Source: Paludibacter sp. (GTDB lineage Bacteria; Bacteroidota; Bacteroidia; Bacteroidales; Paludibacteraceae). From it: 64,000 bases of DNA. Made by a program: the position numbers and the translations under genes. Of this stretch, positions 3 through 53,921 are shown one piece after another. The DNA is taken from contig JAYFPF010000036.1 in assembly GCA_034928015.1 (NCBI GenBank), positions 15,669 through 79,668 of the forward strand, given 5' to 3'. The notes under the pieces are model-generated. The model saw only the letters and a program-made list of their open reading frames with translations. It made no database searches and was not told the DNA's origin. Each line of letters opens with the position of its first letter. The stretch's first letter is position 1.

Positions 3-368
3 AATCCGTATTTATATGATGCCAACTCGGGGGGAGACTTACATGGAAAATTGAACGGTATCAAAGTTGATTACTGGACAATTGAAAACCCCTCGACTAC
101 AAATCCACGACCCAGAGACGCAACAATCAGTTATTTTTCATCTTTGTCATATCAGGATGCTTCTTATATACGCCTCCGGAATATTTCACTGGGCTACAGT
201 TTCCCTGAGAAGATGATTGAACCCTTAGGAATTAATAAGGTAAAAGTCTATGTTACGGCTACAAATTTATGGACAATGACAGATTATCTCTCTTACAGTC
301 CGGAGGTAAGTGCCGGAAGCTATCCGGAACCAAAAACCATTGTTGCCGGTCTGAATGTTACATTTTAA
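3..368 (+). CDS. susC: SusC-like TonB-dependent transporter, C-terminal part (5' end outside window)
   Basis: Frame is open from position 3. DASYIRLRNISLGYSFP and a C-terminal GLNVTF are typical SusC ends; it directly precedes a SusD. Confidence 0.93.
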   Translation, partial: NPYLYDANSGGDLHGKLNGIKVDYWTIENPSTTNPRPRDATISYFSSLSYQDASYIRLRNISLGYSFPEKMIEPLGINKVKVYVTATNLWTMTDYLSYSPEVSAGSYPEPKTIVAGLNVTF

Positions 369-402
369 AGTTTCTTGATTAACTATTTCAATTTTGTGAA
401 GA

Positions 403-2013
403 ATGAACACCATGAAAAAGATTTTATATAGCGTAGTTTTAGTGATGGTACTTATACTGTTATCATCATGTGAAGACTTTCTTCAGGAAAAAGTATATAC
501 AAAAGTTACCAGTGATTATATTGTATCAACTCCTTCAGGGATGGCCAGTGCGGTATTGGCTATGTACTATAAAGACAGGGAGCTGTTCCGTAATAACAAT
601 GATACGGAGACCACTGTATGGCTCAATATGCTGATGGGAGATGATATAACAGTTCCACGCGCCGGAGAAGGAATTCCCCAGTTTGGAAGGCTTTTAAATT
701 TACAGGGCTCGACTACGACTGTAGGTAGGATATGGCGCCACATGTATGCTGTTATCGGGTATGCAAATCTGGTGGTTGAGGCTTCAAATAAGGTTGATAT
801 GACTGATCCGGTCGCAGTTCAGGCGCTTGCCGAAGCAAAGGTGTTCCGTGCACATGCTTATTTTTGGTTGTTGCGGAAATATGACAGAATTTATCTGAAC
901 ACAAGGGTGACAACACCTGAAAATGTAAATGATTCTATAGTTTATTCTCCCGCCGATCCTGCCGATGTATATGAGTTAATCAACAGTGATTTGGATTATG
1001 CCATTGAGAATTTATCATGGACAACCAACCAACCCGGACGTTTTACTCAGGGAGCCGCACGCCACATCAAGGCAAAAGTGGCTGCATGTCAGCAAAACTG
1101 GCAGGAAGTGGCTAATCAGGTAAATGCCATCGATAAAAGTGGGGTTTATAGTCTGGTTGCATTGGATAATGTTTTTAACGGTCCTGACCTGAATCACAGT
1201 GAAGCTATCCTGGTATCACAATGGAGCAAAGGGAACGGAGGATGGTACATTAGTCCTTCTACGGGAAGCACCTCCGGTCATCGTTTGGCACTGCATTTTA
1301 CACCGTTGTATAATCAGGAACAGGGAATGTTAATTGATTTTGCATCCGGAGGTTATCCCTGGGGACGTTTATTCCCTAATAATCATTTGTTGAGTAAATA
1401 TAATAAATCGAAGGATAAACGATACAATGCATATTATAAACACGCCTGGACTTACAATAACGCAGCGGGTGTCCCCAGAGGTAAAAAAGTAGGAGACACC
1501 ATCGTGGCAGCCAATCAGGCTCAATATCTGAATCTGCATCCGGCATGTACAAAGTATAATGATTCATATACCAGAATCAGCCCCCAGGAAACGCAGTCAT
1601 TTAAAGACATCATCATTTACCGGTTGGCTGAAACCTATCTGATGGGAGCAGAAGCATATTATCATTTGGGTAAGAGTGACAGCTTGTCCTATTACTATAA
1701 TAAGACATGGGAGCGGGCCGGAAATACCAAATTTACCGGAGCCATTACATTGGATATGATTATCGATGAACATGCACGTGAATTAGCAATGGAGGGCGAT
1801 CGCTGGTTTTTCCTGAAAAGAAACGGAATTCTGATTGACAGAATCAAGAAATATGGTGGAGAATACATTAAAACCACTGCTAATGTGGTACTGATGAATG
1901 ATACAACTATCAGAGACAATGTACAGCCACATCATGTAAGATTGCCTATTCCTCAGGCGCAAATCGACATAATGGGAAAAGAAAACTTTCCTCAGAATGA
2001 GGGGTATAATTAG
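403..2013 (+). CDS. susD: SusD/RagB glycan-binding lipoprotein (start may be ATG 412)
   Basis: Lipoprotein signal ending LLSSC-EDFL; motifs AEAKVFRAHAYFWL, IYRLAETYL, DEHARELAMEGDRWFFLKR, LPIPQAQID. Confidence 0.95.
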   Translation: MNTMKKILYSVVLVMVLILLSSCEDFLQEKVYTKVTSDYIVSTPSGMASAVLAMYYKDRELFRNNNDTETTVWLNMLMGDDITVPRAGEGIPQFGRLLNLQGSTTTVGRIWRHMYAVIGYANLVVEASNKVDMTDPVAVQALAEAKVFRAHAYFWLLRKYDRIYLNTRVTTPENVNDSIVYSPADPADVYELINSDLDYAIENLSWTTNQPGRFTQGAARHIKAKVAACQQNWQEVANQVNAIDKSGVYSLVALDNVFNGPDLNHSEAILVSQWSKGNGGWYISPSTGSTSGHRLALHFTPLYNQEQGMLIDFASGGYPWGRLFPNNHLLSKYNKSKDKRYNAYYKHAWTYNNAAGVPRGKKVGDTIVAANQAQYLNLHPACTKYNDSYTRISPQETQSFKDIIIYRLAETYLMGAEAYYHLGKSDSLSYYYNKTWERAGNTKFTGAITLDMIIDEHARELAMEGDRWFFLKRNGILIDRIKKYGGEYIKTTANVVLMNDTTIRDNVQPHHVRLPIPQAQIDIMGKENFPQNEGYN

Positions 2014-2048
2014 TAGAGCGAATAGCTAATAACGAATAACTAATAGTG
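2014..2048 (+). repeat. degenerate 7-nt tandem array right after the susD stop
   Basis: tagagcg-aatagct-aataacg-aataact-aatagtg; a similar array overlaps the acd stop on the minus strand (22890-22937). Confidence 0.55.
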
Positions 2049-2063
2049 GTACATTATCAACGT

Positions 2064-3470
2064 ATGAAAGTTTTAATATATATTTTGCTGATTTGTTATG
2101 GGGGTGTTGTCGCACCTGCATTTTCCAGAACCTATACTCCTATCCGGGTAGAAGCAAAAAAATGGGTGAAGGGAGATAATAACCAACCCTGGCAATTTTT
2201 TGACACCAGGATTATTAATAATCTGCAAGGGTTTAAAAATACGGGAAATGATGAAGTCAATAAATACGGCAGTACAATTAATAAGAAAATAGCCGGTACT
2301 GGTTTCTATCGTGTCGAAAAAACAGGTGGCCGCTGGTGGGTAATAGATCCTGAGGGATATTGCAATATTCAAACCGTGATAAATGGTTTCAGGCAAGGTA
2401 CATCTCAAAAAAATCAGAAAGCATTCAGACAATTGTATAAATCTGAAGAAGACTGGGCAAACAAATCTGCTAAAGCGTTCGAGGAATATGGACTTAATGG
2501 CATAGGTTCATGGAGTAATTATCCTGTCGTACAGTCTTATAACAACAAAAGTCAGAAACACAAGCTTTCATATTCGGTTAATCTGAGTATGATGGCATCT
2601 TACGGAAAGAAAAGGGGAGGTACATACCAGTTACCCGGTAATATCGGTTTCCCGAATCAAACCATCTTTGTTTTTGACTCTGAATTTCCGGCATTTTGTG
2701 ATTCTTTGGCTAAAGTACAGATTAGCGGCTGGAAAAATGATCCGGATGTTTTCGGATATTTTTCTGATAACGAATTGCCATTCGGGATTAAAAATCTGGA
2801 AGGATACCTGACGCTTAAAAATCCGAAGGATCCGGGAAGGATGGCTGCGGAAAAATGGTTGAAAGAAAAACGTCTGACAGTTGATAAGATCACCGACAAG
2901 GAAAGAAGTGAGTTTGCCGGTCTGGTTGCTGAAAGATACTTCCGCATTGTATCGGAAGCTATTCGCAAGGCAGACCCGAACCACATGTATCTCGGAAGCC
3001 GTTTACATGGCTCGGCTAAATTCGTTTCTGAAATAATGCATGCTGCCGGAAAATACTGCGATGTGGTGTCGGTAAATTATTATGGAGTATGGACTCCGGT
3101 TAAGGAACATCTCGACAATTGGGCTGCATGGTCGGGAAAGCCGTTTATTATCACCGAGTTTTATACAAAAGCGATGGATTCAGGTTTGGCAAATACAACA
3201 GGAGCCGGCTATACGGTACATACACAGCGAGACAGAGGATATGCATATCAGGATTTTTGTCTGGCTTTGCTGGAGTCTAAAAACTGTGTAGGCTGGCATT
3301 ATTTCAAATATCAGGATAATGACCCGACAGCCAAAGGGGTAGATCCGTCGAATATTGACTCGAACAAAGGAATCATAGACAATGATTACAGATTTTATGA
3401 AGATTTAATGAACTCAATGCAGCAACTTAACCGACAGGTTTATTCGCTCATAGACTATTTTGACAGGTAA
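2064..3470 (+). CDS. GH50-like (agarase-annotated) clan GH-A glycoside hydrolase with SPI signal, no T9SS CTD
   Basis: GRWWVIDPEG, GYFSDNELPF (putative acid/base Glu), FIITEFY (putative nucleophile Glu), CVGWHYFKYQD. ATG 2064 gives a clean signal peptide; the ORF track starts at GTG 2046. Confidence 0.72.
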   Translation: MKVLIYILLICYGGVVAPAFSRTYTPIRVEAKKWVKGDNNQPWQFFDTRIINNLQGFKNTGNDEVNKYGSTINKKIAGTGFYRVEKTGGRWWVIDPEGYCNIQTVINGFRQGTSQKNQKAFRQLYKSEEDWANKSAKAFEEYGLNGIGSWSNYPVVQSYNNKSQKHKLSYSVNLSMMASYGKKRGGTYQLPGNIGFPNQTIFVFDSEFPAFCDSLAKVQISGWKNDPDVFGYFSDNELPFGIKNLEGYLTLKNPKDPGRMAAEKWLKEKRLTVDKITDKERSEFAGLVAERYFRIVSEAIRKADPNHMYLGSRLHGSAKFVSEIMHAAGKYCDVVSVNYYGVWTPVKEHLDNWAAWSGKPFIITEFYTKAMDSGLANTTGAGYTVHTQRDRGYAYQDFCLALLESKNCVGWHYFKYQDNDPTAKGVDPSNIDSNKGIIDNDYRFYEDLMNSMQQLNRQVYSLIDYFDR

Positions 3471-3502
3471 TTTTTATATTCAACTTTTAAATTAGATAAG
3501 TT

Positions 3503-4630
3503 ATGAAAAACAAGATTTTTACTTTAATTTTTATGATTGGATTAGCTGGTATTGCTAATCTGCAGGCACAGTTACTGCTGGAAGAAAATTTTGATTATGA
3601 TGCCAATCGTGTGTTGATTCTGGATGCAATTGCCAATTCTGATAATTTTGATGGTGTAACGGGATGGTCTACTCAGAGTAACAGCGCATCCGGGACTAAT
3701 TGTTTTAATATTGAGGATGGAGCTTTAACTTATAACGGTTATGCCGGTTCAGGAATTGGTAACTCACTAAAGTATAATGGTGATGCTGGACAAGGTGTTT
3801 TTAAACTTTTTTCAAAAAATGTACGGAACGATTCGGTTGTCTATGTTTCGTTTCTGATAAATTTTCCAAACACCGCAGTGTCAGGTGGCGATTATTTTGT
3901 CGGAATTAAAATGGAGCCTTCAGCGACCAGTACAAATTGGGGTGGCAGGTTGTTTGCCTCAGTCGATCCAACTTATCCGGGTGAAGAGGTGAGCCTCGGA
4001 ATCAACAAGATGAGCGGAGGAGCCACAACATGGGTCAATGCAGTGACTGGGCCGTTTCTTGCCGCAAACACAACTCACCTGCTTGTTGTAAAATATCATG
4101 TGGGCGTATTAAATGGTACCAGTGCAGCAGAGGAGGCCGGCAAGTTTGATGATGTTATGTCGCTTTATGTTAACCCAGCCCTGAACGGAAGTGAGCCTGT
4201 AACTCCCGATCTGATTCATCAGGATGCTAATCAGAATGATTTATATCGCTATACCCAGAGCGGACTGGTCTTTGGGGGAGCAAGAGGCTTGTACCTGCGT
4301 GCTTCAGCAGCAGGAAATGCTCCGGCATATACTATCGATGGCATTCGGGTCGGACTTACCTGGGAAGAAGTGTTACCGGCTCCAAACGGATTGAAGAATG
4401 CATCGGCAACAAACTTCTCGTATCGTATGGATGATAAACATATTGTTGTTACAGCATCAAATTTCAATTACGACAGGTTTGAACTGAATAGTTTGTCCGG
4501 TCAGTGCGTTTTATCCGGGTCGTTGGTTGAGAAAAATGGAAGAATCGATGCTTCTTCGCTACATCCGGGCGTATATATCCTGAGTTTACAGGGGAATCAG
4601 CGGGCGTCAGCCAAGATTATTATCCGTTGA
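3503..4630 (+). CDS. T9SS-sorted protein with one uncharacterised beta-rich domain
   Basis: Signal NLQA|Q; type-A CTD-like end GVYILSL...KIIIR; the domain resembles the N-terminus of 11312-14005. Confidence 0.8.
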   Translation: MKNKIFTLIFMIGLAGIANLQAQLLLEENFDYDANRVLILDAIANSDNFDGVTGWSTQSNSASGTNCFNIEDGALTYNGYAGSGIGNSLKYNGDAGQGVFKLFSKNVRNDSVVYVSFLINFPNTAVSGGDYFVGIKMEPSATSTNWGGRLFASVDPTYPGEEVSLGINKMSGGATTWVNAVTGPFLAANTTHLLVVKYHVGVLNGTSAAEEAGKFDDVMSLYVNPALNGSEPVTPDLIHQDANQNDLYRYTQSGLVFGGARGLYLRASAAGNAPAYTIDGIRVGLTWEEVLPAPNGLKNASATNFSYRMDDKHIVVTASNFNYDRFELNSLSGQCVLSGSLVEKNGRIDASSLHPGVYILSLQGNQRASAKIIIR

Positions 4631-4671
4631 TATTGATAGATTCAAATGTATTGATACAGAAAAAAAACGGT

Positions 4672-6783
4672 ATGAATAAGTTTCTTACATTCGTTTTATT
4701 TCTTTTTCTGATTGTTCAGGGAATCGGGGCAGAAGAAGTTGAACACCGGCTGATCCCGGTTGATGATACTTATACGTACAGTGATAATACCATCCGCGGG
4801 ATGGAGGATTTGCTGAAAACGTATCACTCAACTGCAGGAGCGCAATTTCGTCGGATTACTTTTCTTAAATTTGATATATCATCCTTGTCGCCATTTGCTC
4901 AGTCGGTTAAACTCCGGCTTTATACAAACGGGTTTCAGGCAGGTGGCGATAATGCACATCAGTTCGATTTGTATCCGGTAAAAATCAATACATGGTCGGA
5001 GGATGATATTACTTTTCTGAATTTTACAGAAAAGGCAGGAACCGATATGACTTCACCGGTTCTTGCTTCTTATATCGTACCTGCCGGTCAGGCTCTACCT
5101 GCCCAATATATTGAATTTTCCGGAGCAAATCTGACCAGATACATAACAGATTCACTGGCTGCAGGTAAACAATATGTTTCCATTCGCCTGCGGGAAAAGA
5201 ATGTTGTAAAGAATGGCGCTGCCGGTGTTATTGTCGAATTTCATTCGAAGGAGAACGAAAGCGGCTTTACACCAGAACTGATTGTTGTTGAAAAAGATGT
5301 AGAACTGCTGAGAGCTTCTGATATACGGGTAGATGGAGTACGGATTGAAGGATTTTCGGAATCTGTTTACCGCTATGTGTGCCGGCTGCCATATAATACA
5401 ACGGTTATTCCGGATGTGTCGGCTACAGCCAAGTATGGGGATACTTCAGTCTCTGTGACACAGGCAGCCGGTCTGACCGGAACAGAAGCCAGCCGAACAG
5501 CAAAAATCAGGATAAGCAAAGGTGAGGACATGCTTACTTATTCGATCGTGTTTGAACTTCTGCCGCCACCCAATGATGCCCGTTTGTCTGACATGTTGAT
5601 TAATGGGAAATCACTTGAGTTTTTTGATAAGGAGAAAACCGCTTATGTTGTTTATTTGCCTTATAGTGCCGAAGAAGTTCCGGAGATTACTGTCGTACCG
5701 AATGAGCCCGGAGCCGTAACCCGGATTGAAAATGCACTTTCTGTGGATAGTTCATCTCCGGAGTCTGAGCGCACGACAAACCTGTATGTAACTTCAGGAG
5801 ACAAAACGGAAACGCGTATTTACCGTGTTGAGTTCCGGCGTTTGCCCAAACTGGATATTATATTGGGAATAGGTCAGTCGAATATGGCCGGCCGGGCTGA
5901 TTTCTCAGCTTATACCGGAGCAATGCAGGATGTGTTTTTGCTAACTCCTGCCGGAGAATTTGAGAATGCATCGAATCCAATGAATAAGTACTCGAATATC
6001 CGGAAAGATATCAGTCTGCAAAAATTGGGACCATCTTATTCCTGCGCCCTGAAATTACAGGAATACATGCACAAACCTGTGGCTTTTGTTGTGAACGCGC
6101 AGGGGGGATCTTCGATTACAACCTGGTACCAACCCGGTAAATCAAATTATGATGCATCTGTTGTCCGGGCAAAAGAAGCACAACGTTTCGGCAGGATTCG
6201 TGGGGTAATCTGGCACCAGGGCGAAAGTGACAGTGGAAATGCAGGGACTTATATGGAGAAGTTAAAAACGATGGTCGAAAATTTGCGTAAAGATCTGAAT
6301 GAACCTGATTTATATTTTGTTGCCGGTGAGCTTGCTTACTGGCGTGGAGGAGGAACAGGTTCGACAGCCTTCAATACGATGATTCGTACCATAGCAGCTA
6401 ATATACCTAATAGCGACTGGATTTCGGCTGAAGGCTGTACACCGTTGATAGACAATTCAGATCCTCATTTTGATGCGCCAAGCGCCATTCTGTTGGGAGA
6501 ACGGTATGCTGAAAAATTAATCGGAGCAGTTTTTAATACAACAGCAACAGATCAGCCTGAGCAAATTAAGCTTCCGCTGTTGAAGCATCATGCCGGAGGT
6601 CTAACTGTTGTCACTCATCAAGACCCTGTTTGGTTAAAAATAACTGACTTAACCGGCAGGAGCGTTTATCAACACCTGCTACAGGCTCATCAATCCGTCG
6701 ATCTTAAAGTTAACAAAGGAATATATCTGCTCTCGTTCAGACAAAACGAGCAGCATTATACAAGAAAAATTATGATTCAATAA
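4672..6783 (+). CDS. T9SS cargo: DNRLRE/CBM96-like module + 2 cadherin-like beta-sandwiches + SGNH (SASA/CE6-like) acetylesterase + CTD
   Basis: PVDDTY...RRITFLKFDIS...EFHSKE...PELIV; esterase blocks GQSNMAG, WHQGESD, DPHF; CTD GIYLLS...KIMIQ. ATG 4672 chosen over TTG 4627. Confidence 0.82.
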   Translation: MNKFLTFVLFLFLIVQGIGAEEVEHRLIPVDDTYTYSDNTIRGMEDLLKTYHSTAGAQFRRITFLKFDISSLSPFAQSVKLRLYTNGFQAGGDNAHQFDLYPVKINTWSEDDITFLNFTEKAGTDMTSPVLASYIVPAGQALPAQYIEFSGANLTRYITDSLAAGKQYVSIRLREKNVVKNGAAGVIVEFHSKENESGFTPELIVVEKDVELLRASDIRVDGVRIEGFSESVYRYVCRLPYNTTVIPDVSATAKYGDTSVSVTQAAGLTGTEASRTAKIRISKGEDMLTYSIVFELLPPPNDARLSDMLINGKSLEFFDKEKTAYVVYLPYSAEEVPEITVVPNEPGAVTRIENALSVDSSSPESERTTNLYVTSGDKTETRIYRVEFRRLPKLDIILGIGQSNMAGRADFSAYTGAMQDVFLLTPAGEFENASNPMNKYSNIRKDISLQKLGPSYSCALKLQEYMHKPVAFVVNAQGGSSITTWYQPGKSNYDASVVRAKEAQRFGRIRGVIWHQGESDSGNAGTYMEKLKTMVENLRKDLNEPDLYFVAGELAYWRGGGTGSTAFNTMIRTIAANIPNSDWISAEGCTPLIDNSDPHFDAPSAILLGERYAEKLIGAVFNTTATDQPEQIKLPLLKHHAGGLTVVTHQDPVWLKITDLTGRSVYQHLLQAHQSVDLKVNKGIYLLSFRQNEQHYTRKIMIQ

Positions 6784-6811
6784 AATTATTCACATTAAAA
6801 AAGGAAATATT

Positions 6812-7675
6812 ATGAAAACAAATTACACAAAAAATGAAGAGAAAAGATATCTTACTTCATTGTCATTAATGATTACTTTTGCATTGTTCTTTATTGTAGG
6901 AATATCCACACAAAATATAAATGCTCAATCGGGTGCGGTTATTTATCCTACTGATGACGCTTATCAAAGATACACTAACGGAACTACTGTTTACGGACAA
7001 CAAGAAAGTTTACTTATTCAATTTCATACTGATGGTCAATGGAGAAGAGAAGCTTGGTTGAAATTTGAGATTGCCGGACTTGATGCTGAGCACTTTGACT
7101 CGGCAACTGTAATCTTGTCCCCTTTAAGTACGAATGCGAATATAATTTCTCCAATGCACACAATAAGAGAGACAACCACAAATTGGAGTGAGTTAACACT
7201 TGTTTCTGCAAAAAAGCCAACTCTTATCGATGTAGTATTAGATAGTAAAGAATATACACCAGGTACTCCGATTAAATTGGATGTAACAAACATACTTAAA
7301 ACACGTCTTGCAGAAGAGAAGGACACTATAAGTTTTAATATCAGACCTTCAAGTGTTGCAGGAGCATTGTATTTTCATTCAAAAGAATCAAGTCAATCGG
7401 AATTATGGCCGGTTTTACTTTTAAAAGGTACTACCGTAGGTCTAATCCATCAAGGTGATGAGGGAATTAGGTTTAAAGTAGCAAACAATAAACTAATAGT
7501 TTCAGGTCGAGAAAGTATTAAAACAACTATTTTTGATGTTACAGGTAAAGTTATATTGTCAAAACAAGAAGCACAGAATTCGTATTCAATTAATATTTCT
7601 GATTTGATTTCTGGTATCTACATAGTATCATTACAATATGAAACAGGTAATAAAATTGTAAAAATTATGCTATGA
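6812..7675 (+). CDS. T9SS cargo consisting only of a DNRLRE/CBM96-like module and CTD
   Basis: Signal NINA|Q; PTDDAY...RREAWLKFEI...WSELTL...LDVTN...FHSKE...PVLLL; CTD GIYIVSL...KIML; no catalytic domain seen. Confidence 0.78.
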   Translation: MKTNYTKNEEKRYLTSLSLMITFALFFIVGISTQNINAQSGAVIYPTDDAYQRYTNGTTVYGQQESLLIQFHTDGQWRREAWLKFEIAGLDAEHFDSATVILSPLSTNANIISPMHTIRETTTNWSELTLVSAKKPTLIDVVLDSKEYTPGTPIKLDVTNILKTRLAEEKDTISFNIRPSSVAGALYFHSKESSQSELWPVLLLKGTTVGLIHQGDEGIRFKVANNKLIVSGRESIKTTIFDVTGKVILSKQEAQNSYSINISDLISGIYIVSLQYETGNKIVKIML

Positions 7676-7676
7676 T

Positions 7677-7725
7677 TAAAAAACAGAAATATTTTTAACT
7701 TGTGTTGAAAGTATTTCTGTTTTTA
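7677..7725 (+). terminator. long AU-rich hairpin, terminator or RNA-stabilising stem
   Basis: AAAAACAGAAATATTTTTAAC-ttgt-GTTGAAAGTATTTCTGTTTTT, immediately after the 7675 stop. Confidence 0.6.
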
Positions 7726-7730
7726 ATTAA

Positions 7731-8759: not shown

Positions 8760-8807
8760 TTAATTAACAAATAAAAATAACAAATAAAAACTATCGATTA
8801 ATACATC

Positions 8808-11243: not shown

Positions 11244-11311
11244 AACACAGGAGAGGATTCAGGTCTATTGTAGTGAATTCCGGTTCTGCCGGGTAATTTT
11301 TAAATTGTTGT

Positions 11312-14005: not shown

Positions 14006-14007
14006 AA

Positions 14008-16155
14008 ATGAATTGTACAAAAAAGAATTTAGTTGTAGTAGTATTTGGCTTTTTGTTCCCGGTTTTGTTGTCGGCACAAAATGATTATCAAACCATTCAG
14101 ACGAAGAGTTCCTATTCCGGTAGCTGGACTACCCGTCAGGCTAAATTAGTCGGCCTGGTTCCCGGTTTCGAAAGCAAGGCGGATGGAGCGGATGATTTTA
14201 CCCGGTATGGTACTTACAAATATCTGAGAACAGACTCGACGGGATTTTTCTATGTAAAGAAAATTGACGGCAGATGGTGGATGGTTGATCCTGAAGGTTA
14301 TGCCGGTATCAACATGGCTGTGACGAGTTTTAGCTCAGCGAATATACAAAACGATTATGATATTACCAGACGTTTGGGATATAATGGCTCCGGAAATTTC
14401 TTAGCCAGCGAGAGTCAGACTAAGTCAGGTTACAACCTTCAGAATTATGCGAACTTTTCTTTTACACGGCGACTTAATTTTTTCCTCAGTTATAAAAATG
14501 TAAGAAAGAATTACTATACGACACCAACGTCTGTACAGGGCAGCCTGGATCATATTCTTGTACTTGATCCGCAGTTTGAGATATACTGCGATAATCTGGC
14601 CAATACCAATGTAACTCCCTTTGCAGAAGAAAGAGATTTGCTTGGATGGTTTACCGACAATGAAATTAACTTCAACCAGGACCAGTTGCGCAATCTGGTT
14701 AAAGATTTACCGGCTGGAGATCCAAGCAGGAATGCAACCTTAGCATGGGCAGCTCAAAAGGGCCTCAGCGAATCGGATTGTATCAATTATACATCGAAAG
14801 TGACCGAAGCGTTGAAACAGGAGTTTGCCGCTTATCTCGCAGAACATTATTTTAAAGTTGTTGCGGCCGCTATCCGGAAATATGACCCAAACCATCTGAT
14901 TCTCGGAAGTCGCTTTCATGGTCGTCCGAGGGCTATTCCGGCAGTAGTGGCAGCATCTCATAGATATATGGACGTTACTTCCGTTAACTTTTACGACCGG
15001 TGGTCGCCAAATGAACAGATCGCGGCAACTTCCTGGACTGAGGATAAACCCTGTTTAGTGGGAGAATTCTATATTAAAGATATAAATACACAGCCGGGTA
15101 CGCAGTCGGGCGCCGGTTGGTATGTCAACTCTCAGGTACACAGAGGGTATTTTTATCAGAATACTTGTATTGAGTTGCTGAAAAATAAGAATTATATAGG
15201 TTGGCACTATTTCCGTTTCAAGGATGATGATGACGGTTCGAATAAAGGCATTGTGAGCAACGCGCTGGTTGAATATACAGATATGACCGGCTACATGGAA
15301 GAACTGAACAAACAGGTGTACAGGCTTATTGATCATTTTGACGGGATAAATCGCAGACCTGATGTGGAGACCAGAGCTTATACTGTTGAAGCGGTGGCCG
15401 ATACTTATGTAATTCCCGGTACTACGAATACGGCTAACTTTGCATCTTCAACAGAATTGGAAATCCGCCATCACGCAACAGAAGCAAATCGCCGTGAAGC
15501 GTTTCTGAAATTTGATTTATCATTATTGAGATCAAAACTCCCGAAGTTGAAAAATGCCCTTTTGGAGGTTAGCTGTATCCAGACAGATGAGTCGGCAAGG
15601 GCGCTATTCGCATCCGGAATCAGTGATGTGTCATGGGAAGAGTCGACATTGACGGGGGCAGTGCGTCAGACCAATAACGACTGGCGCCTCGGTTACAACA
15701 GGTTGTCGTTTCTGAAAGGAATAGTTCCTCAGGAGAAACTTGTATTCGACGTAACAGGATGGATTTATGATCAGCCATATCAGGAAAATGTATCATTTAA
15801 AATTCATGATCTGAATGCTACGGGTTCAGCCCTGAAAATTGCTTCCCGGGAGCATGCTGACGTTAATTTACATCCGAAACTGATACTGACATTTTGGGAT
15901 GATTCAACCGATATTCCGACTTTTAATGAAAAAAATAATGCATTCAGTTTTTTTCCTAATCCGGTGCGTGATGAACTTTATATCAGAGGAGATGATTTTG
16001 CAAAAGCTGAATTGTTAACAATAAAGGGAGAAAAACTGTTGAGTACACATGAAAGCAGGATCAATGTCTCGGGATTTCAGAACGGGATTTATTTGTTGAG
16101 TGTATTATGCAATAACGGAAAAACGTCTTTCTATAAACTGAGTATTGTTAATTAA
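14008..16155 (+). CDS. T9SS cargo: GH50-like hydrolase + DNRLRE/CBM96-like + CTD
   Basis: GRWWMVDPEG, GWFTDNEINF, CLVGEFY, GWHYFRFKDD; VADTYV...RREAFLKFDLS...IASRE...PKLIL; CTD FPNPVRDELYI...GIYLL. Confidence 0.8.
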   Translation: MNCTKKNLVVVVFGFLFPVLLSAQNDYQTIQTKSSYSGSWTTRQAKLVGLVPGFESKADGADDFTRYGTYKYLRTDSTGFFYVKKIDGRWWMVDPEGYAGINMAVTSFSSANIQNDYDITRRLGYNGSGNFLASESQTKSGYNLQNYANFSFTRRLNFFLSYKNVRKNYYTTPTSVQGSLDHILVLDPQFEIYCDNLANTNVTPFAEERDLLGWFTDNEINFNQDQLRNLVKDLPAGDPSRNATLAWAAQKGLSESDCINYTSKVTEALKQEFAAYLAEHYFKVVAAAIRKYDPNHLILGSRFHGRPRAIPAVVAASHRYMDVTSVNFYDRWSPNEQIAATSWTEDKPCLVGEFYIKDINTQPGTQSGAGWYVNSQVHRGYFYQNTCIELLKNKNYIGWHYFRFKDDDDGSNKGIVSNALVEYTDMTGYMEELNKQVYRLIDHFDGINRRPDVETRAYTVEAVADTYVIPGTTNTANFASSTELEIRHHATEANRREAFLKFDLSLLRSKLPKLKNALLEVSCIQTDESARALFASGISDVSWEESTLTGAVRQTNNDWRLGYNRLSFLKGIVPQEKLVFDVTGWIYDQPYQENVSFKIHDLNATGSALKIASREHADVNLHPKLILTFWDDSTDIPTFNEKNNAFSFFPNPVRDELYIRGDDFAKAELLTIKGEKLLSTHESRINVSGFQNGIYLLSVLCNNGKTSFYKLSIVN

Positions 16156-16166
16156 ACACAAATAGC

Positions 16167-17372
16167 ATGAGAAACAGCATTATAAGCTTGTTGATTATAG
16201 TATGCTCCTCTGTTGTCTCAGGTCAGGACACATTGCAGCTTCCTCCGCTTTTGAGATTTAATGACGGCTCAGAAGTGAAATCTGTACGTGATTGGGAGAA
16301 ACGTAGAAAAGAAATTCGTTCCATCTTTGAGAATGAGGTGTATGGAACAGCTCCGGTTGTACCAAAGAATATTAAGTTCAGGATAGTGCAGGAGGATAAA
16401 AATGCGTTGAATGGAAAAGCAACCAGAAGATTAGTCAACCTTTATTTGAACAAACTGTCCAATCCGGTTGAACTCCTGATTTATTATCCGAATAAACCAG
16501 GCAGAGTGCCGGCGTTTTTAGGATATAACTTTTGGGGAAACTATACGATAACCAACGAAAAAGAAGTGCCCCTTACATCTCTATGGGTTCCAGACCGGGA
16601 AAAAGAAACAGATAACAGAGCAAAAGAAACAATGCGGGGAATCAGGACAAATCGCTGGCCTGTGGAAATGATTGTTGATGCCGGATATGCGCTGGTAACT
16701 CTTTATAGCGGGGATATAGACCCAGATTATGATGATGGTTTCGACAATGGTGTACATGCAATTTATAAAAAAGAAAAATATACATGGGGGACAATTGCAG
16801 CCTGGTCGTGGGGACTCCGTTGTGTGATGGGCTATCTCGAAAAAGATGATAAAATTAACAGTGAAAAGGTGGCGGTTATAGGTCATTCCCGGTTGGGGAA
16901 AGCTGCTTTGTGGGCAGGAGCGACAGATGAAAGATTTGCGCTCGTTATTTCGAATAATTCAGGTTGTGGTGGTGCTGCTTTGTCACGTAGAAAGCAGGGC
17001 GAAACTTTTACGGCGATTAATACACGTTTTCCATATTGGTTCTGCAACAATTTTAAAAAGTATAACGACAAAGAAGAACTACTCCCTGTTGATCAGCATC
17101 AACTCATTGCTTTGATGGCTCCCCGGCCGGTTTATGTCGCCAGTGCCGATAAGGATGCCTGGGCTGATCCTGAAGGAGAATTTATGAGCGCCCTGCTGGC
17201 AGGAGATGTTTATCGCTTGTACGGATTAAAAGATATTGGGCAGAAGACAATGCCCGAGGTGGAGGTCCCTTTGCAGAACGGACATGTAGCGTATCACATC
17301 CGTTCCGGAAAACATGATATTACCCGGTACGACTGGCAACAATATATATTGTTTGCAAATAAACGGTTATAG
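16167..17372 (+). CDS. CE15 family (glucuronoyl-esterase-like) carbohydrate esterase
   Basis: CE15 signature VIGHSRLGK; SNNSGCGGAAL, LPVDQHQLIALMAPRP, WADPEGEF. Confidence 0.85.
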   Translation: MRNSIISLLIIVCSSVVSGQDTLQLPPLLRFNDGSEVKSVRDWEKRRKEIRSIFENEVYGTAPVVPKNIKFRIVQEDKNALNGKATRRLVNLYLNKLSNPVELLIYYPNKPGRVPAFLGYNFWGNYTITNEKEVPLTSLWVPDREKETDNRAKETMRGIRTNRWPVEMIVDAGYALVTLYSGDIDPDYDDGFDNGVHAIYKKEKYTWGTIAAWSWGLRCVMGYLEKDDKINSEKVAVIGHSRLGKAALWAGATDERFALVISNNSGCGGAALSRRKQGETFTAINTRFPYWFCNNFKKYNDKEELLPVDQHQLIALMAPRPVYVASADKDAWADPEGEFMSALLAGDVYRLYGLKDIGQKTMPEVEVPLQNGHVAYHIRSGKHDITRYDWQQYILFANKRL

Positions 17373-17374
17373 TC

Positions 17375-19729
17375 TTATTTTCGCAACGCTTTATCAGCCT
17401 TTAACTGTTCTCCTTTCCATGCCTTCTTATTTGTCCAGTCGGCAGGTTTTGCAGTCCAGAACTCATCGTCAGCCGATAAACCCAAAGGAAGAAAAACGGC
17501 TGAACACAAATACAGACTTCCCGTGGAGATATAGGACTCGGCCAGTTCCGGCTGATGTCCGGCAAAACCCAGTGTCAGCCATCCATGTTTGTCAAAAGTG
17601 CCTTTCTGACTGATTTGCTGTTTGATAACGGAAGTCAGAGCTGAACGTATCTGTACGGGACTCAGGTGATCAGGCAGTTTTTTCAGTAAAGTTGCCTGTG
17701 AAAGTGCATGAAAACAACCGAACCTGTAAACGAGCGATCTACCTATGGCCGGATAGGTCCCTTCCGGAGAAATCAGTCTCTCGAGCTGATCAGCATGCCT
17801 GCTCAGGCGTGTTGACTGAAGGTTAAATCTGGATTTGTAATCAGGAGAAATGTCTTTGATAACCGCAAGTACATCATACAACATCGGATGTATGACCAGG
17901 CTGTTATAATAATCAAAATGAAATGCCGGTCCGTCGCCGTACCAGGCATCTCCTTTGTACCAGTTTTCTAACTTTTCCAAAGCATAATCAATGGCTTCGA
18001 AATTACATTTGCCGGTGAAACGGAAAAGAAACGCCTCTACAGTTGCTGAAAATAGTACCCAGTTGTTTTCCAGTGGTTTGAAAGTTCTGGTCGCTATCAT
18101 GGAGTTAATCATCAATTCCTGCGTTTTTTTGTCTAAACCACCCCAAAGATTTTCAGGTGCACGCAGAAAACCCTGAGCGAGGAAAGCCGCGTCAACAAGA
18201 TTCTGCCTGTCGTTATTGAATCTGATAAAGTCGGGAGAAGTTGAGTCAACCGCATTTTTTAATGCAGCAAGTGTCATTGACAGGTATCTGGTGCGTAGCT
18301 TACTTTCTTTGCTGTCATCACTATCCAGCTCCAGCCAGGGAGCAATACCACATATCGTTCTGCCCAGCGCTTCGAGATGGGAAACCTGTTCACGCCCCCG
18401 TTTACTTCCCGCTTTGGTTGTTTCCACGGGCATTTGTTGCCTTAGTGTGCTGTTACTTAAATTAGCAAGAACAGGTTCGGTGATTTTTATCATATTTTCA
18501 ACCCAATACCGGCGGTCGGGATGTGTTTTGCTTGCTCTCGCAGTCTCAATTTTTCTGATTCTGAGCATAGCTTCAATGAAATAATAATCTGCATAGGTCA
18601 GGGGAGCGTCAACCTCACTGTTTTTAGCCATAAAACCCACACTGTGTTTGAGAATGAAATGCCCGTTTTCATCTTTCTTAGCCATATATGCCGGCGATGC
18701 CAGCGAACGAACCATTTGTTTCCCCAGGGAATAGTATTTTTTCGCCAGCTTTTTGTCGGTGAAAGTGCTTAGTTCAACAAGGGCAGAAGCCATGATTGCT
18801 CCGGCAGAAGCATCTCTGAGCGCATTGGGTATGTCTGGAGCGTTGAAATCCCAATAAGGAATCTTATCCTTGGGAAGGTTCTTGTGCCCTGCAATGTAAT
18901 CTGCTATTTTGATGGCCTGGTCAAGATAAATTTTCTTCTTGGTTTCGCGATACATCATAACGTAACCGTATAAACCCCAGGCTTGCCCTCTTGCCCAGGC
19001 TGATTCATTGTTAACTCCCTGATGCGTTACCCGTTCGACAAACCCTCCGTTAATCGTGTCGTAGCTTATTAAATGATACGAACTTCCATCCTTCCGGAAA
19101 TGGTATTTCAGGGTAGTGTCGGCATGAGAAACCGCAATTTTATAAAAACTGCTGTCTCCCGATATTTTCGTAGCTTGCGTAAGTAATTCCAGATTCATCA
19201 TGTTGTCGATGATAACAGGATATTGCCATTGTTTACTATCCCACGATCTGATTACACCTGTGTTTTCTTTGTATCGCGTAGAAAGAGAGCGTGCAGCAGT
19301 AATGATTACATGTTCTGAATTTTTGTTACCCGTCAGCCTCAGGGCATTGCCAAAACTACAAAATATCATAAATCCAACGTCATGATCATTGGTGGTATAT
19401 TGTTGTTTCCTGACCCTCTCTGTCATTTCAAGTGCAGCTTTCCTGAATTCCTCATCACCTGTAAATTCGTATAAATACCATAAACTGCCGGCAAAAAAAC
19501 CGCTTGTCCACCATTTGTCAGGTGAAGTTATAAGCTTTCCATTCCGGTCGATTGTCCGAGGTAGTCTGCCCGGAATTCCGGCCATTTTTTTGTATAATCC
19601 CATCATTTGATGAGCGGAAACAGATAAGGTTTCTTCGGTTAGTTGCATGATTTCCTTTTTCTCCGTGATTGCAAAAACGAAACTGGAGAATCCCAGAAAA
19701 AGAAATAGCAGGATAGATTTAATTCTCAT
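17375..19729 (-). CDS. GH88 unsaturated glucuronyl hydrolase fused to DUF2264/GH154 glucuronidase-like domain
   Basis: N-half: WWTSGFFAGSLW, HDVGFM, VIIDNMMNLELL, SAWARGQAWGLYG. C-half: SHLEALGRTICGIAPWLEL, NNWVLFSA, WYKGDAWYGDG, FDYYNS, YISTGSLYLC. Confidence 0.88.
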   Translation of the reverse strand: MRIKSILLFLFLGFSSFVFAITEKKEIMQLTEETLSVSAHQMMGLYKKMAGIPGRLPRTIDRNGKLITSPDKWWTSGFFAGSLWYLYEFTGDEEFRKAALEMTERVRKQQYTTNDHDVGFMIFCSFGNALRLTGNKNSEHVIITAARSLSTRYKENTGVIRSWDSKQWQYPVIIDNMMNLELLTQATKISGDSSFYKIAVSHADTTLKYHFRKDGSSYHLISYDTINGGFVERVTHQGVNNESAWARGQAWGLYGYVMMYRETKKKIYLDQAIKIADYIAGHKNLPKDKIPYWDFNAPDIPNALRDASAGAIMASALVELSTFTDKKLAKKYYSLGKQMVRSLASPAYMAKKDENGHFILKHSVGFMAKNSEVDAPLTYADYYFIEAMLRIRKIETARASKTHPDRRYWVENMIKITEPVLANLSNSTLRQQMPVETTKAGSKRGREQVSHLEALGRTICGIAPWLELDSDDSKESKLRTRYLSMTLAALKNAVDSTSPDFIRFNNDRQNLVDAAFLAQGFLRAPENLWGGLDKKTQELMINSMIATRTFKPLENNWVLFSATVEAFLFRFTGKCNFEAIDYALEKLENWYKGDAWYGDGPAFHFDYYNSLVIHPMLYDVLAVIKDISPDYKSRFNLQSTRLSRHADQLERLISPEGTYPAIGRSLVYRFGCFHALSQATLLKKLPDHLSPVQIRSALTSVIKQQISQKGTFDKHGWLTLGFAGHQPELAESYISTGSLYLCSAVFLPLGLSADDEFWTAKPADWTNKKAWKGEQLKADKALRK

Positions 19730-20008
19730 GATTTGATGACTTGTTCTTGTTAATTAAGATGCTAGAGTATAATAACAATGCGAATATCACCTTTTGATCT
19801 GAAATATCATAACAATATTGTCCATTTAAGTAAAAACTTTGTTCAGAAAGTAAATGTAATCATCATTATAACATTAATTGGTTTGATTTTAAACATACAA
19901 TCATGTGTTAATTCCGGCAATCAATTGTGTTTTCTTTAAATGGATGATTTTATCATTTCGCTGTCGATTTCTGGACTATTATTCAACTCGTAATATCTTA
20001 ATCAGTCT

Positions 20009-20016
20009 ATTTTTGC
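20009..20016 (+). promoter_or_regulatory. Bacteroidetes sigma -7 box for the GH2 gene
   Basis: TATTTTTG matches TAnnTTTG, 30 nt upstream of ATG 20047. Confidence 0.55.
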
Positions 20017-20046
20017 AGAAAACTTCTGAATAATAATTTTAAAAGT

Positions 20047-22722
20047 ATGAGAAAGTATTTTTTGCTGTTCTGGATAGTGTTGTTGACCGGGAATCTGATT
20101 TCATCTCCCCGCCTGAAGTATTCTATTAATGAAAACTGGCAATTTATCCGTCAGGATATTGCTGAAGCAAAGGATGGTAAGTGCGACGATCAGCAATGGC
20201 AAACGGTGAATCTGCCGCATACATGGAACGTGTCGGATGTGATGGATGACGAGCCGGGTTATTACAGGAATATAGCCTGGTACCGACGTTCAGTACCGAT
20301 TCCGGCCGGATTTTCAGAAAAGCAGATAACCATATACTTTGAAGGGGCAAACCAGGAAGTAGAGTTGTTTGTGAACGGGAAGAGCGCCGGTACGCACGTG
20401 GGTGGTTATACCCGTTTTAGTTTCGATATTACCTCTCTGATTAAAACCGGGCAAGATAATCTCTTTGCAATCAAGGTAAACAACTGTTACAATGAAGATA
20501 TTCCCCCTTTGACTGCTGATTTTACATTCTTTGGTGGCATCTACAGGGATGTCTTTCTTATCATTACCGGAAAGCAACACGTGTCGACAACACATTATGC
20601 TTCTGAAGGTGTTTATTTGAATACACCTGTGGTCAGGGAAGAGATGGCAAAGATTGAAGTTAAAACTATGTTGACAAATACAAGTGCTGCCGACAGTCGT
20701 GTAAGAATAGAACATACAATTATCCATCCCGATAAAAGCGAAGTAATTAGAGTTTCCAAAAAAATAAAACTTGCAAAGCAAACTTATAACCAGCAGGACT
20801 TGCAACAAGTGGAACTTAAGGCTCCGGCTTTGTGGAGTCCGGAATCTCCTTCATTGTATACTGTTCGTACCCGTATCTACGATGAAAAGTCAAAAGTGTT
20901 GCTGGATGAGATTCTTCAGCCACTGGGACTGCGTTGGTTTGAATTTTCAGCAGAGAAAGGTTTTCATCTGAACGGTAAACCTTATAAATTAATTGGCACG
21001 AATCGCCATCAGTGTTTTGATGGCTTGGGAAATGCATTGTCTGATGAGTTTCATGTGCGTGATGTTCTCATGTTGAAGGAGATGGGAGGGAACTTCCTCC
21101 GGGTATCACATTATCCACAGGACCCGGTGGTGATGGAAATGTGCGATAAACTCGGAATAATAACATCGGTCGAAATTCCAATTGTAAATGCGATTACTGA
21201 GAGTGAAGGGTTTTTTAAAAATTCGATTGAAATGGCACGTGAGATGGTGTTTCAGGATTACAACCGTCCATCGGTTCTGATTTGGGCTTATATGAATGAA
21301 GTATTGCTCAGACCTCCTTTTCGCGATGAATCACAGCGCCATGAAAACTATCTGAAATCAGTCGAGACGCTGGCGAAAGCGATCGAGAAACAAATCAGGG
21401 AAGATGATCCGTATCGATATACACTGATACCTTTTCACGGCAGTTTTGACACATATCATAATGCCGGTTTAACAAAAATATCAAAATTAATCGGGTGGAA
21501 TTTATACCAGGGATGGTATGGCGGTGTATTCAATGGTTTTGGCAAGTTTTTAGATGAATCACAGGAAAAACTGAAAGGTATTCCGTTTATTATTACCGAA
21601 TACGGAGCAGATGCAGATCCCCGCCTGCATGCATTTGATCCGGTACGTTTCGATTATACCCAGGAATGGGCAAATCTTTATCATGAGAATTACATCAAAG
21701 CCATCATGGAGCGTCCGTATGTGGTTGGCGCCAATATATGGAATCTGAATGATTTTCATTCTGAAGAACGAGGAAATGCCGTGCCTCACATCAATAGCAA
21801 GGGAATTACATCGACAGACCGCCAGGTAAAAGACACTTATTTACAGTATCAGGCACTGTTCAGAAAAGAGCCGGTTGTTAATATCGGAGGCAGAAACTGG
21901 ACTGTGAGAGGAGGAAATGCAGATGAGCATTATACTTGTTTGCAACCTGTGAAGGTATATTCAAATCTTGGCGAAATTGAATTTTTCCTGAATGGAGTCT
22001 CGATTGGAAAGCAGCAAACCGCTGATGCCATGGCAGAATTCAATGTTCCGTTTGTGTCTGGTGTGAATGTGCTGGAAGCTGTCGGTTATGCAGAAGGAGG
22101 GCGTACGGTGCGTGATCAGATAAAGGTTGATTTCAGGCTGGTTGCAGCGAATCTGAAAGATGAAAGATTACCGTTCGAATCCATTAATGTGATGCTTGGT
22201 AGTAAGCGTTATTTTGAAGAAAAGGATAAAGCGGTTATATGGCTGCCGGAAAAGCCATATACCCCCGGAAGCTGGGGATATGTCGGAGGTAAAAATTATG
22301 TAAAACGCACCCGGCACGGGCAACAACCGGCTTCAGATTTAAATATTCTGAATACGAATATAGATCCTGTATTTCAGACTATGCGTCACGGAATAGAAAG
22401 TTTTAAATTAGATGTGCCGGATGGTGAATATACTGTCAGTCTGTATTTTGCTGAACTGATGTCGAAAACATCTAAAGTGTTGGTTTATAATTTGGGCGAT
22501 GATGCGATTGCCGATGATATGGACGAAAGAATATTCAGTGTGGATATCAATGGCAACAGAGTAATACATGATTTGAATATTGCCAAAGAATTTGGAGAAC
22601 TGAATGCAGTAACAAAGAAATTTATTGTCAACGTTCAAAACGGTAAAGGAATCAGCGTTGATTTTGTGCCGGTAAAAGATGAAGCCATTTTAAACGCCAT
22701 CAGGGTGTATCGGAATTATTAG
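20047..22722 (+). CDS. GH2 beta-glycosidase (galactosidase/glucuronidase) with C-terminal malectin-like domain
   Basis: VNLPHTWN, IYFEGAN, GGIYRDV, GTNRHQ, RVSHYPQ, WAYMNE, ITEYGAD; malectin-like end YTVSLYFAEL...FSVDING. Confidence 0.92.
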   Translation: MRKYFLLFWIVLLTGNLISSPRLKYSINENWQFIRQDIAEAKDGKCDDQQWQTVNLPHTWNVSDVMDDEPGYYRNIAWYRRSVPIPAGFSEKQITIYFEGANQEVELFVNGKSAGTHVGGYTRFSFDITSLIKTGQDNLFAIKVNNCYNEDIPPLTADFTFFGGIYRDVFLIITGKQHVSTTHYASEGVYLNTPVVREEMAKIEVKTMLTNTSAADSRVRIEHTIIHPDKSEVIRVSKKIKLAKQTYNQQDLQQVELKAPALWSPESPSLYTVRTRIYDEKSKVLLDEILQPLGLRWFEFSAEKGFHLNGKPYKLIGTNRHQCFDGLGNALSDEFHVRDVLMLKEMGGNFLRVSHYPQDPVVMEMCDKLGIITSVEIPIVNAITESEGFFKNSIEMAREMVFQDYNRPSVLIWAYMNEVLLRPPFRDESQRHENYLKSVETLAKAIEKQIREDDPYRYTLIPFHGSFDTYHNAGLTKISKLIGWNLYQGWYGGVFNGFGKFLDESQEKLKGIPFIITEYGADADPRLHAFDPVRFDYTQEWANLYHENYIKAIMERPYVVGANIWNLNDFHSEERGNAVPHINSKGITSTDRQVKDTYLQYQALFRKEPVVNIGGRNWTVRGGNADEHYTCLQPVKVYSNLGEIEFFLNGVSIGKQQTADAMAEFNVPFVSGVNVLEAVGYAEGGRTVRDQIKVDFRLVAANLKDERLPFESINVMLGSKRYFEEKDKAVIWLPEKPYTPGSWGYVGGKNYVKRTRHGQQPASDLNILNTNIDPVFQTMRHGIESFKLDVPDGEYTVSLYFAELMSKTSKVLVYNLGDDAIADDMDERIFSVDINGNRVIHDLNIAKEFGELNAVTKKFIVNVQNGKGISVDFVPVKDEAILNAIRVYRNY

Positions 22723-48903: not shown

Positions 48904-48930
48904 AGTATTATTTACGTTTCAAGAATGACA

Positions 48931-50019: not shown

Positions 50020-50051
50020 AATCTACTAATTTAACTAATCACACATCTGCT

Positions 50052-51308: not shown

Positions 51309-51314
51309 TTGATT

Positions 51315-52559: not shown

Positions 52560-52701
52560 TTAATATGTAAAATATCTTCACTATGTGTCACTTTCAAATC
52601 TGCTTTTATCTAAATAAACAAAATCCAAATTGTTTTTTTGTGACCATTCAAGTAATTTCAGGGCAAATCATTGATTCTCTTGAACATGGTCATTGACTCT
52701 C

Positions 52702-53901: not shown

Positions 53902-53921
53902 GAACTTTTAAATAGAAGTCA

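Follow-up and report, generated by a model that had tools for sequence, protein, structure and literature searches.

The stretch of Paludibacter sp. DNA analyzed here, 64,000 nucleotides at C84:15669-79668 (contig JAYFPF010000036.1 of a 3.42-Mb genome in 98 contigs; hereafter the window), opens within a polysaccharide utilization locus (PUL) in which type IX secretion system (T9SS) cargo appears to do the work of surface lipoproteins. Our preferred interpretation, which we consider reasonably probable, is that this is the SusCD PUL of an anaerobe like Paludibacter, controlled by a hybrid two-component system (HTCS) regulator, with T9SS cargo replacing the surface lipoproteins, and that its target is an O-acetylated polysaccharide rich in β-D-glucuronate. 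The domain identities, the T9SS machinery and the synteny that underlie this interpretation are established, and the locus is an orphan T9SS-linked PUL with a layout that is routine in its genome, not a new kind of system. A preliminary description of this DNA, made from the sequence alone, named open reading frames that are all present where it placed them. That description was essentially right in what it observed, and its interpretation, which is partly supported, pointed in the right direction while overstating the rarity of the architecture and the uniformity of the CBM96 modules. It missed an IS982 element, the upstream part of SusC and a divergent HTCS gene.

The plus-strand genes at positions 3-17372 of the window form a tightly packed array with gaps of mostly 3-69 bp, the IS982 element being the sole exception. 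The array begins with the C-terminal end of a SusC-like TonB-dependent transporter (3..368, plus strand; Plug and CarboxypepD_reg domains). The complete SusC has 1002 amino acids (aa), and its gene starts upstream of the window at C84:13028. Directly upstream of susC, also outside the window and in divergent orientation, lies the gene for an HTCS regulator of 1337 aa (C84:8675-12688, minus strand) that has Reg_prop, Y_Y_Y, HisKA, HATPase_c, Response_reg and HTH_AraC domains. The SusD-like protein (403..2013, plus strand; PF07980 100 bits, PF14322 44 bits) is encoded 35 bp after susC, has a signal peptide ending in LLSSC and is the sole clear lipoprotein in the locus. Adjacent susC and susD genes, an HTCS gene and co-localized carbohydrate-active enzymes (CAZymes), which comprise two members of glycoside hydrolase (GH) family 50, a GH2, a GH88-GH154 protein, a member of carbohydrate esterase (CE) family 15 and two SASA-domain esterases, together identify the region as a PUL. 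Genes on the 3' side of position 22722 have housekeeping roles (acyl-CoA dehydrogenase, ETF and proline synthesis), and the PUL therefore spans the region from the HTCS gene to the GH2 gene. Half of its 12 genes encode T9SS cargo.

The prediction of an exported layer follows from the C-terminal sorting domains (CTDs) of these six proteins together with the presence of a T9SS in the same genome, where SprA (TIGR04189, 2758 bits) and GldM (TIGR03517, 407 bits), the two components searched for, were both found. We name the cargo proteins by the window positions at which their genes start. CTDs were scored with the type-A model TIGR04183 (cut-off 23 bits), and Pfam Por_Secre_tail, PF18962 (cut-off 27 bits), served as an alternative criterion. 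Five of the six proteins reach the TIGR04183 cut-off: the 3503 (29.5 bits), 4672 (27.7 bits), 6812 (34.7 bits) and 8808 (31.3 bits) proteins do so clearly, and the 14008 protein scores 21.2 bits as a whole protein, 26.0 bits on its tail alone and 29.7 bits with Por_Secre_tail. The 11312 protein has no TIGR04183 match at E<=0.01 as a whole protein, and its tail scores 18.2 bits (E 0.0018), which is under the cut-off. Since the corresponding tails in orthologues from four related genomes reach 30.4-38.9 bits, the 11312 tail is best regarded, by orthology, as a diverged type-A CTD. The preliminary description of six consecutive same-strand CTD proteins thus stands as to their number and strand, but one of them falls short of the model and the IS982 element splits the run. 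The SusC/SusD PUL with a layer of type-A cargo that it proposed is supported, with the cargo either anchored at the surface, as its word 'displayed' has it, or released. Visual inspection shows Gln directly after the predicted signal-peptidase site in five of the six cargo proteins and in the CE15 protein, a habit of the Bacteroidota.

This arrangement is common in the genome, which has about 124 CTD matches in all. A CTD protein is encoded within 20 kb downstream of 22 of the 39 SusC-like genes, so the design is what one usually finds here; placing T9SS cargo behind SusCD is a house style of the organism instead of a peculiarity of this locus. A design unique to the locus was rejected on that count, on the tandem runs of four to seven CTD genes seen on several contigs, and on a paralogous PUL on contig C26. 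The word 'hybrid', which had been used to mark the locus as unusual, is therefore inapt, and T9SS-linked PULs have already been published (PMC5127042, PMC5831590). The chitin utilization locus of Flavobacterium johnsoniae with its T9SS-secreted ChiA (PMC5127042) and the T9SS-linked multi-modular cellulases of 'Candidatus Paraporphyromonas polyenzymogenes' (PMC5831590) resemble the present locus in joining SusC/SusD import to CTD-bearing CAZymes with appended carbohydrate-binding modules (CBMs), and they act on chitin or cellulose with exported enzymes from known GH families. The window locus differs from both in that half of its genes encode cargo, two of the cargo proteins lack a recognizable catalytic domain, its modules are of the CBM96 family, and an acetylated glycan rich in glucuronic acid (GlcA) appears to be the target.

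Three of the cargo proteins are candidates for removing O-acyl groups. The 4672 protein (4672..6783, plus strand) combines a CBM96 module, one or more cadherin-like β-sandwiches (25.4 bits), a CE6-like SASA/SGNH acetylesterase domain with a GQSNM motif (SASA 157.7 bits) and the type-A CTD, and it has a PDB relative in 1zmb (71 bits). The 11312 protein (11312..14005, plus strand; 897 aa) consists of a jelly-roll domain, a sialate-O-acetylesterase-like SASA domain that also has a GQSNM motif, a cadherin-like domain and the diverged CTD. Its SASA match is 62.8 bits, and the sialate O-acetylesterases 9ega, 9h4u and 7kmm match it at 233-253 bits. The 8808 protein (8808..11243, plus strand; 811 aa) carries an unclassified α/β-hydrolase domain, a Big_5 Ig-like domain (26.2 bits), a CBM96 module and a type-A CTD. 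Its N-terminal ~430 residues match no Pfam or NCBIfam family and no PDB sequence. This domain belongs to a family of 119 homologue clusters, the distant ones of which carry BD-FAE or Peptidase_S9 domains, and Ser286, Asp360 and His392 are invariant in 52 sequences. A predicted structure (pLDDT 91.5) has an α/β-hydrolase fold that matches the carbohydrate esterases 6xyc, 6tkx, 6mly and 6a6o, which makes the domain a candidate carbohydrate esterase of a new α/β-hydrolase family. The locus would encode three to four esterases of the O-acetyl type.

The four CBM96/DNRLRE modules of the preliminary description all score above both model cut-offs (26 bits for Pfam PF24517 and 34 bits for NCBIfam NF033679), with PF24517 and NF033679 giving 54.7 and 44.5 bits in the 4672 protein, 72.5 and 57.5 bits in the 6812 protein, 92.4 and 79.9 bits in the 8808 protein, and 65.9 and 46.8 bits in the 14008 protein. 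These are four of the seven CBM96 matches in the whole 3.42-Mb genome, a clustering far beyond chance. The 8808 module, the only one compared by fold, is modelled as a β-sandwich close to 8wab (TMt 0.86) and 7vbo (TMt 0.74) at about 19-22% identity, and the 6812 module matches 8wab at E 2e-7. The founder of CBM96 is TM6-N4 of the alginate lyase Dp0100 (7vbo), which binds alginate via a basic groove (PMC9971899), and 8wab was deposited as a DNRLRE-domain protein and is a CBM that binds chondroitin sulfate. Both structures belong, by profile and by fold, to the same family as the window modules, and both bind polyuronates, which we count in favor of a uronate-containing target; their modules sit on lyases, whereas those of the window sit on esterases and a GH50. 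Pairwise identity among the four modules is 23-42%. The idea that they are recent copies of one module was rejected on this ground, and the proposal of one common targeting module is likewise unsupported, since modules this divergent belong to a family with two ligands already.

The 6812 protein (6812..7675, plus strand; 287 aa) is a stand-alone CBM96 with a type-A CTD, and from its sequence it is a candidate T9SS-delivered glycan-binding protein. It and the C-terminal half of the 8808 protein are 36% identical. Among the related genomes compared, whose syntenic loci we label L004, L005, L010, L021, L023 and so on, the gene is specific to this genome; its slot in L023 (8814-9908) and L004 (~18200-19550) is occupied by an unrelated CTD protein of 364-370 aa.

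The 3503 protein (3503..4630, plus strand; 375 aa) has a ConA-like β-jelly-roll at about residues 23-295 followed by its type-A CTD, and the predicted structure suggests a T9SS cargo protein that looks non-catalytic. The jelly-roll model is of good quality (pLDDT 90.6), and its structural neighbors, at TMt 0.46-0.58, include lectins and jelly-roll lyases (PL36 and the PL20 glucuronan lyase). An assignment to PL20/PL36 or to the lectins was considered and dropped, as these values are too weak to choose between catalysis and binding. A profile of the 3503 family matched the solved CTDs 8glk_D and 8glj_D, the latter deposited under the name 'Por secretion system C-terminal sorting domain-containing protein', and found no sequence match among the solved proteins of the PDB outside the CTD. 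The jelly-roll is shared with the N-terminus of the 11312 protein (28% identity, E 1e-14), and it has no detectable similarity to the 'ETTVFADDF' domain of the protein that fills the 6812 slot in the relatives.

The non-CTD enzymes of the locus, a GH50-like protein, a CE15, a GH88-GH154 and a GH2, have the identities that the preliminary description gave them, and the assignment of enzymes to the periplasm or to the exported layer follows from the absence or presence of a CTD. The first, GH50a (2046..3470, plus strand), is a short GH50-like glycosidase of one domain; it has a signal peptide, lacks a CTD and is presumed to be periplasmic. It matches no Pfam or NCBIfam model; it matches 5t3b, a GH50 of 481 aa, at 298 bits, and GH50 β-agarases at 86-109 bits. 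GH50b, the 14008 protein (14008..16155, plus strand), joins a GH50 catalytic domain (5t3b, 164.7 bits) to a CBM96 and a type-A CTD, and may be the exported enzyme that cleaves the backbone. The two are 33% identical, and together they match the agarases 4bq2 and 4bq4 at 82-109 bits. The catalytic glutamate motifs DNE and GEF are aligned in GH50b, and DNE and (T/G)EF are readable in GH50a. No agar-related machinery is present in the locus. GH50 is described in a 2026 preprint as polyspecific, and two members of ~54 kDa, the β-glucuronidases GAF03325.1 and ANW96656.1, are active on p-nitrophenyl (pNP)-β-GlcA. Elsewhere in the genome we observed a third GH50-CBM96-CTD protein of 726 aa (C82:16578-18755), whose catalytic domain is 37% identical to GH50a, and a fourth GH50-like gene at C51:66642-68153.

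The array is met from the other side by a convergent gene (17375..19729, minus strand) for a GH88-GH154/DUF2264 fusion that has a signal peptide but lacks a CTD (PF10022, DUF2264, 383 bits). Its residues 52-395 match the GH88 proteins 3wiw (364 bits) and 1vd5 (184 bits), and residues 404-779 match the glucuronate dehydratases 9o4u and 9nwf (372-375 bits). GH154 proteins, including the founder BT_3677, are not glycosidases; they dehydrate terminal saturated β-GlcA to the 4,5-unsaturated form, which is then removed by GH88 (PMC12269599). Priming of GH88 by the GH154 dehydratase would account for the presence of a GH88 in a locus without any polysaccharide lyase. The two domains are fused here and in L004, L006 and L008 and are encoded by separate neighboring genes in L009-L012 and L023, which argues for functional coupling. 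The genome has eight GH88 homologues against a single GH154 domain, that of the fusion.

A parallel for this step is the chondroitin pathway of Bacteroides caccae PUL25, which consists of BcPL35, BcGH88, BcGDH/GH154 and BcGH109 (PMC12269599) and in which the GH154 dehydratase primes terminal GlcA for GH88, as we propose for the fusion. The window locus differs from that pathway in lacking a lyase and a hexosaminidase, in its many esterases, in the fusion of the two enzymes and in its predicted dependence on the T9SS. The parallel raises the possibility of a glycosaminoglycan-like target of the chondroitin, hyaluronan or heparosan type, which the preliminary description had also entertained, and the best structural match of the 8808 module, the chondroitin-sulfate-binding 8wab, would fit it. 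Against such a target, neither the locus nor its relatives contain a lyase of PL8, PL35, PL12 or PL15, a GH20, GH84 or GH109 hexosaminidase, or a sulfatase; the O-acetyl-type esterases would have no substrate on a glycosaminoglycan; and the metagenomes that yielded the related genomes are from biofilm, lake and similar sources and not from hosts. With lyase, hexosaminidase and sulfatase all missing, we judge such a target very unlikely.

The last gene of the locus (20047..22722, plus strand) encodes a GH2 with N-terminal, middle and C-terminal GH2 domains, DUF4982 and a C-terminal malectin domain (CBM57; Malectin 67 bits), a signal peptide and no CTD. It matches 6d50 and 5uj6, which we take to be Bacteroides uniformis BuGUS-2, at 715 bits over its full length, and is a candidate BuGUS-2-like β-glucuronidase, not a proven one. 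The array itself ends with a CE15 glucuronoyl esterase (16167..17372, plus strand) that has a signal peptide, the nucleophile motif GHSRLG and no CTD. It scores 114 bits with GCE_fung (PF22244) and 357-387 bits against solved bacterial CE15 enzymes (8q6s, 6gry, 6ehn and OtCE15A).

A CE15 beside CE6-like and sialate-O-acetylesterase-like esterases is typical of xylan-type PULs, and the target might be GlcA-bearing material of the plant cell wall, either a hemicellulose (glucuronoxylan in its acetylated form) or fragments of arabinogalactan proteins (type II arabinogalactan that ends in β-GlcA or 4-O-Me-GlcA), on which the GH50s would act as β-galactanases or β-galactosidases. GH50 does contain β-galactosidases. 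BT_3677 comes from an arabinogalactan PUL, and Paludibacter was isolated from plant residue. The founding GH154 acts, moreover, on methyl β-glucuronide (PMC12269599). The difficulty is that GH10, GH30, GH43, GH51, GH67, GH115 and GH16 are all missing from the locus and its conserved relatives, as are an arabinofuranosidase and a rhamnosidase. In addition, the GlcA of xylan is α-linked, whereas the GH2 glucuronidase and GH154 act on β-GlcA, and the CE15 is dispensable in L023. For these reasons a plant cell-wall target seems unlikely to us.

We return to an O-acetylated, β-glucuronate-rich target. In the following scheme we infer from the domains where each part works, in what order and on which substrate. 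Outside the cell, the CE6-like SASA, the sialate-O-acetylesterase-like SASA and the new α/β-hydrolase would strip O-acyl groups, GH50b would cut the glycan, and the jelly-roll-CTD and CBM96-CTD proteins would hold it, as would the CBM96 modules that three of the enzymes carry. SusCD would import the fragments, which would be broken down in the periplasm from the non-reducing end. There, GH50a and the BuGUS-2-like GH2 would remove β-glucuronate, CE15 would remove esters on the glucuronate carboxyl group, and the GH154-GH88 fusion would turn terminal saturated β-GlcA into the 4,5-unsaturated form and then release it. The enzyme mix agrees with the O-acylated, uronic-acid-containing glycan that had been suggested for this DNA, and the uronate can be narrowed down. 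It is most likely β-D-glucuronate, judging by the BuGUS-2-like GH2, the GH154 dehydratase, the CE15 and a GH50 family with β-glucuronidases among its members. All activities that can be assigned are aimed at GlcA or at esters, and there is no glycosidase specific for another sugar, which argues for an acetylated, GlcA-rich target. The most economical candidates, and on this evidence the most likely ones, are an acetylated polyuronate of the β-glucuronan type and a GlcA-dominated microbial or algal exopolymer.

A bolder version, which we offer as speculation with rather little chance of being right, is that the locus serves to break down an O-acetylated polyuronate of the β-glucuronan type by a lyase-independent route. 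T9SS esterases would deacetylate the polymer, a GH50 would be the first 'glucuronanase' or the jelly-roll a new lyase family, and the CBM96 modules would be polyglucuronate binders. CTD-anchored non-catalytic proteins would replace the surface glycan-binding lipoproteins, and GH154-GH88, not a classical glucuronidase alone, would clear the chain ends.

Several observations weigh against a GlcA-rich target or against the cooperation of the parts proposed here. The main rival to the preferred substrate, a backbone of galactan or glucan on which GlcA is only a decoration, draws on the polyspecificity of GH50, a family that also includes agarases, β-1,3-glucanases and β-galactosidases and could therefore supply a backbone-cleaving enzyme for such a glycan. 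The closest solved relative of the two GH50s, 5t3b, was deposited merely as 'Glycoside Hydrolase'. The best NCBIfam model for the GH2, β-glucuronidase LacZ4, gives 469.6 bits against a cut-off of 950, which is why we call the protein BuGUS-2-like and nothing more specific. In the closest complete genome, L023, CE15 is replaced by a third GH50, and CE15 is thus not a core member of the set. The CBM96 modules are divergent, as noted, and have slightly more acidic than basic residues, unlike the founder with its basic groove. To these points are added the low score of the 11312 tail and the possible effect of the IS982 element on transcription.

No characterized PUL that combines GH50, GH154, GH88 and CE15 was found in the literature searched, but the earlier statement that the enzyme mix fits no recognized PUL is only partly true. 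The core of the locus matches that of the predicted PUL39 of Bacteroides ovatus, the closest described relative, which contains two GH50s and a GH2-CBM57 active on pNP-β-GlcA, and whose substrate is listed as undetermined. An HTCS, SusC/SusD, two short GH50 paralogues and a GH2-malectin/CBM57 are common to both in a comparison of gene content. To this core the window locus adds the six T9SS cargo proteins, the three to four esterases, CBM96, CE15 and the GH88-GH154 fusion, and one of its GH50s bears a CBM96 and a CTD. A GH50 is also paired with a GH2 glucuronidase in F. johnsoniae.

The nearest relatives of this genome are Paludibacter sp. metagenome-assembled genomes, and others fall within the Bacteroidales. 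L004, L005, L010, L021 and the complete 3.74-Mb congeneric genome L023 retain the gene set, with some rearrangement, at 53-79% identity, and its conservation across several genomes argues for one functional unit. L023 has an additional gene for a 279-aa BD-FAE/COesterase protein after SusD (L023:3240-4079), and the third GH50 in its CE15 slot (L023:14719-16032) has 63% identity to GH50b and lacks a CBM and a CTD. The distribution of the locus is patchy: a close homologue of GH50b occurs in three of the 121 genomes of the family, which represent two of its 33 genera.

The unit is interrupted at one point in this genome. An IS982-family insertion sequence (about 7724..8768, plus strand), with a transposase open reading frame at 7833-8741 (NF033520 250.8 bits, DDE_Tnp_1_3 228.8 bits) and terminal inverted repeats of ~24 bp at about 7724-7747 and 8745-8768, lies between the 6812 and 8808 genes. 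The assembly has no second copy, and the syntenic locus L023 lacks the element. The insertion may interfere with transcription of the final four plus-strand genes, and it is possible that the array is not one working unit, the insertion having uncoupled or silenced the genes from 8808 to CE15, with the diverged CTD of the 11312 protein as a sign of incipient decay. The element does sit only 40 bp before the start codon of 8808 and right behind a hairpin at 7679-7724, the 11312 tail does score 18.2 bits where its orthologues reach 30-39, and the 6812 gene beside the element is missing from the related genomes compared. Every open reading frame is nevertheless intact and full length relative to its orthologues, the catalytic motifs are kept, and IS elements often carry outward-reading promoters. 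We therefore find a broken array quite doubtful. A scan for regulatory sites did not define the transcription units. It returned 64 promoter-like sites against a shuffle mean of 53.1 (standard deviation (SD) 7.5), a difference of ~1.5 SD obtained with a sigma-70 consensus that does not fit Bacteroidota promoters, and 24 terminator-like sites against a shuffle mean of 15.8 (SD 4.1), or ~2 SD above it.

What makes the locus worth pursuing is that it gathers several uncharacterized CAZyme branches whose setting suggests a single chemical theme, β-glucuronate and O-acetyl groups. These parts are the short branch of GH50, which gut Bacteroides also commonly have, an unclassified α/β-hydrolase family of ~120 clusters, the jelly-roll domain and four divergent CBM96 modules, and with them comes a protein in which GH88 is naturally fused to the glucuronate dehydratase, a recent discovery. 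The locus is an entry point to the substrate of the orphan GH50/GH2-CBM57 type of PUL, which is present also in B. ovatus, and a way to ask whether CBM96 is a general polyuronate binder. That a Paludibacter-like genome regularly relies on T9SS cargo in the place that surface lipoproteins have in Bacteroides PULs also bears on how PULs vary beyond the gut models.

The paralogous PUL of the same design lies outside the window at C26:44000-78000. It has SusC/SusD, an HTCS, a fasciclin-CBM96 lipoprotein, two jelly-roll-type CTD proteins of 350-360 aa ('ETTVF..DDF') and a NAGPA-domain CTD protein. Two of its esterases are paralogues of those in the window, namely a 950-aa CBM96-SASA-CTD protein (60% identity) and a SASA-CTD protein (57%), and its GH88 is 73% identical to the corresponding half of the fusion. 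It also encodes a 3-keto-disaccharide hydrolase and two β-helix proteins, the one of which that was checked has a weak CTD match.

Two further features of the window lie downstream of the PUL. An M28-family protein is encoded at 27220-28191, 4.5 kb beyond its end. At 48000-54000 the G+C content drops to 0.30-0.31, compared with ~0.40-0.44 elsewhere, and the GC skew is reversed; this stretch could be a foreign or surface-polysaccharide island.

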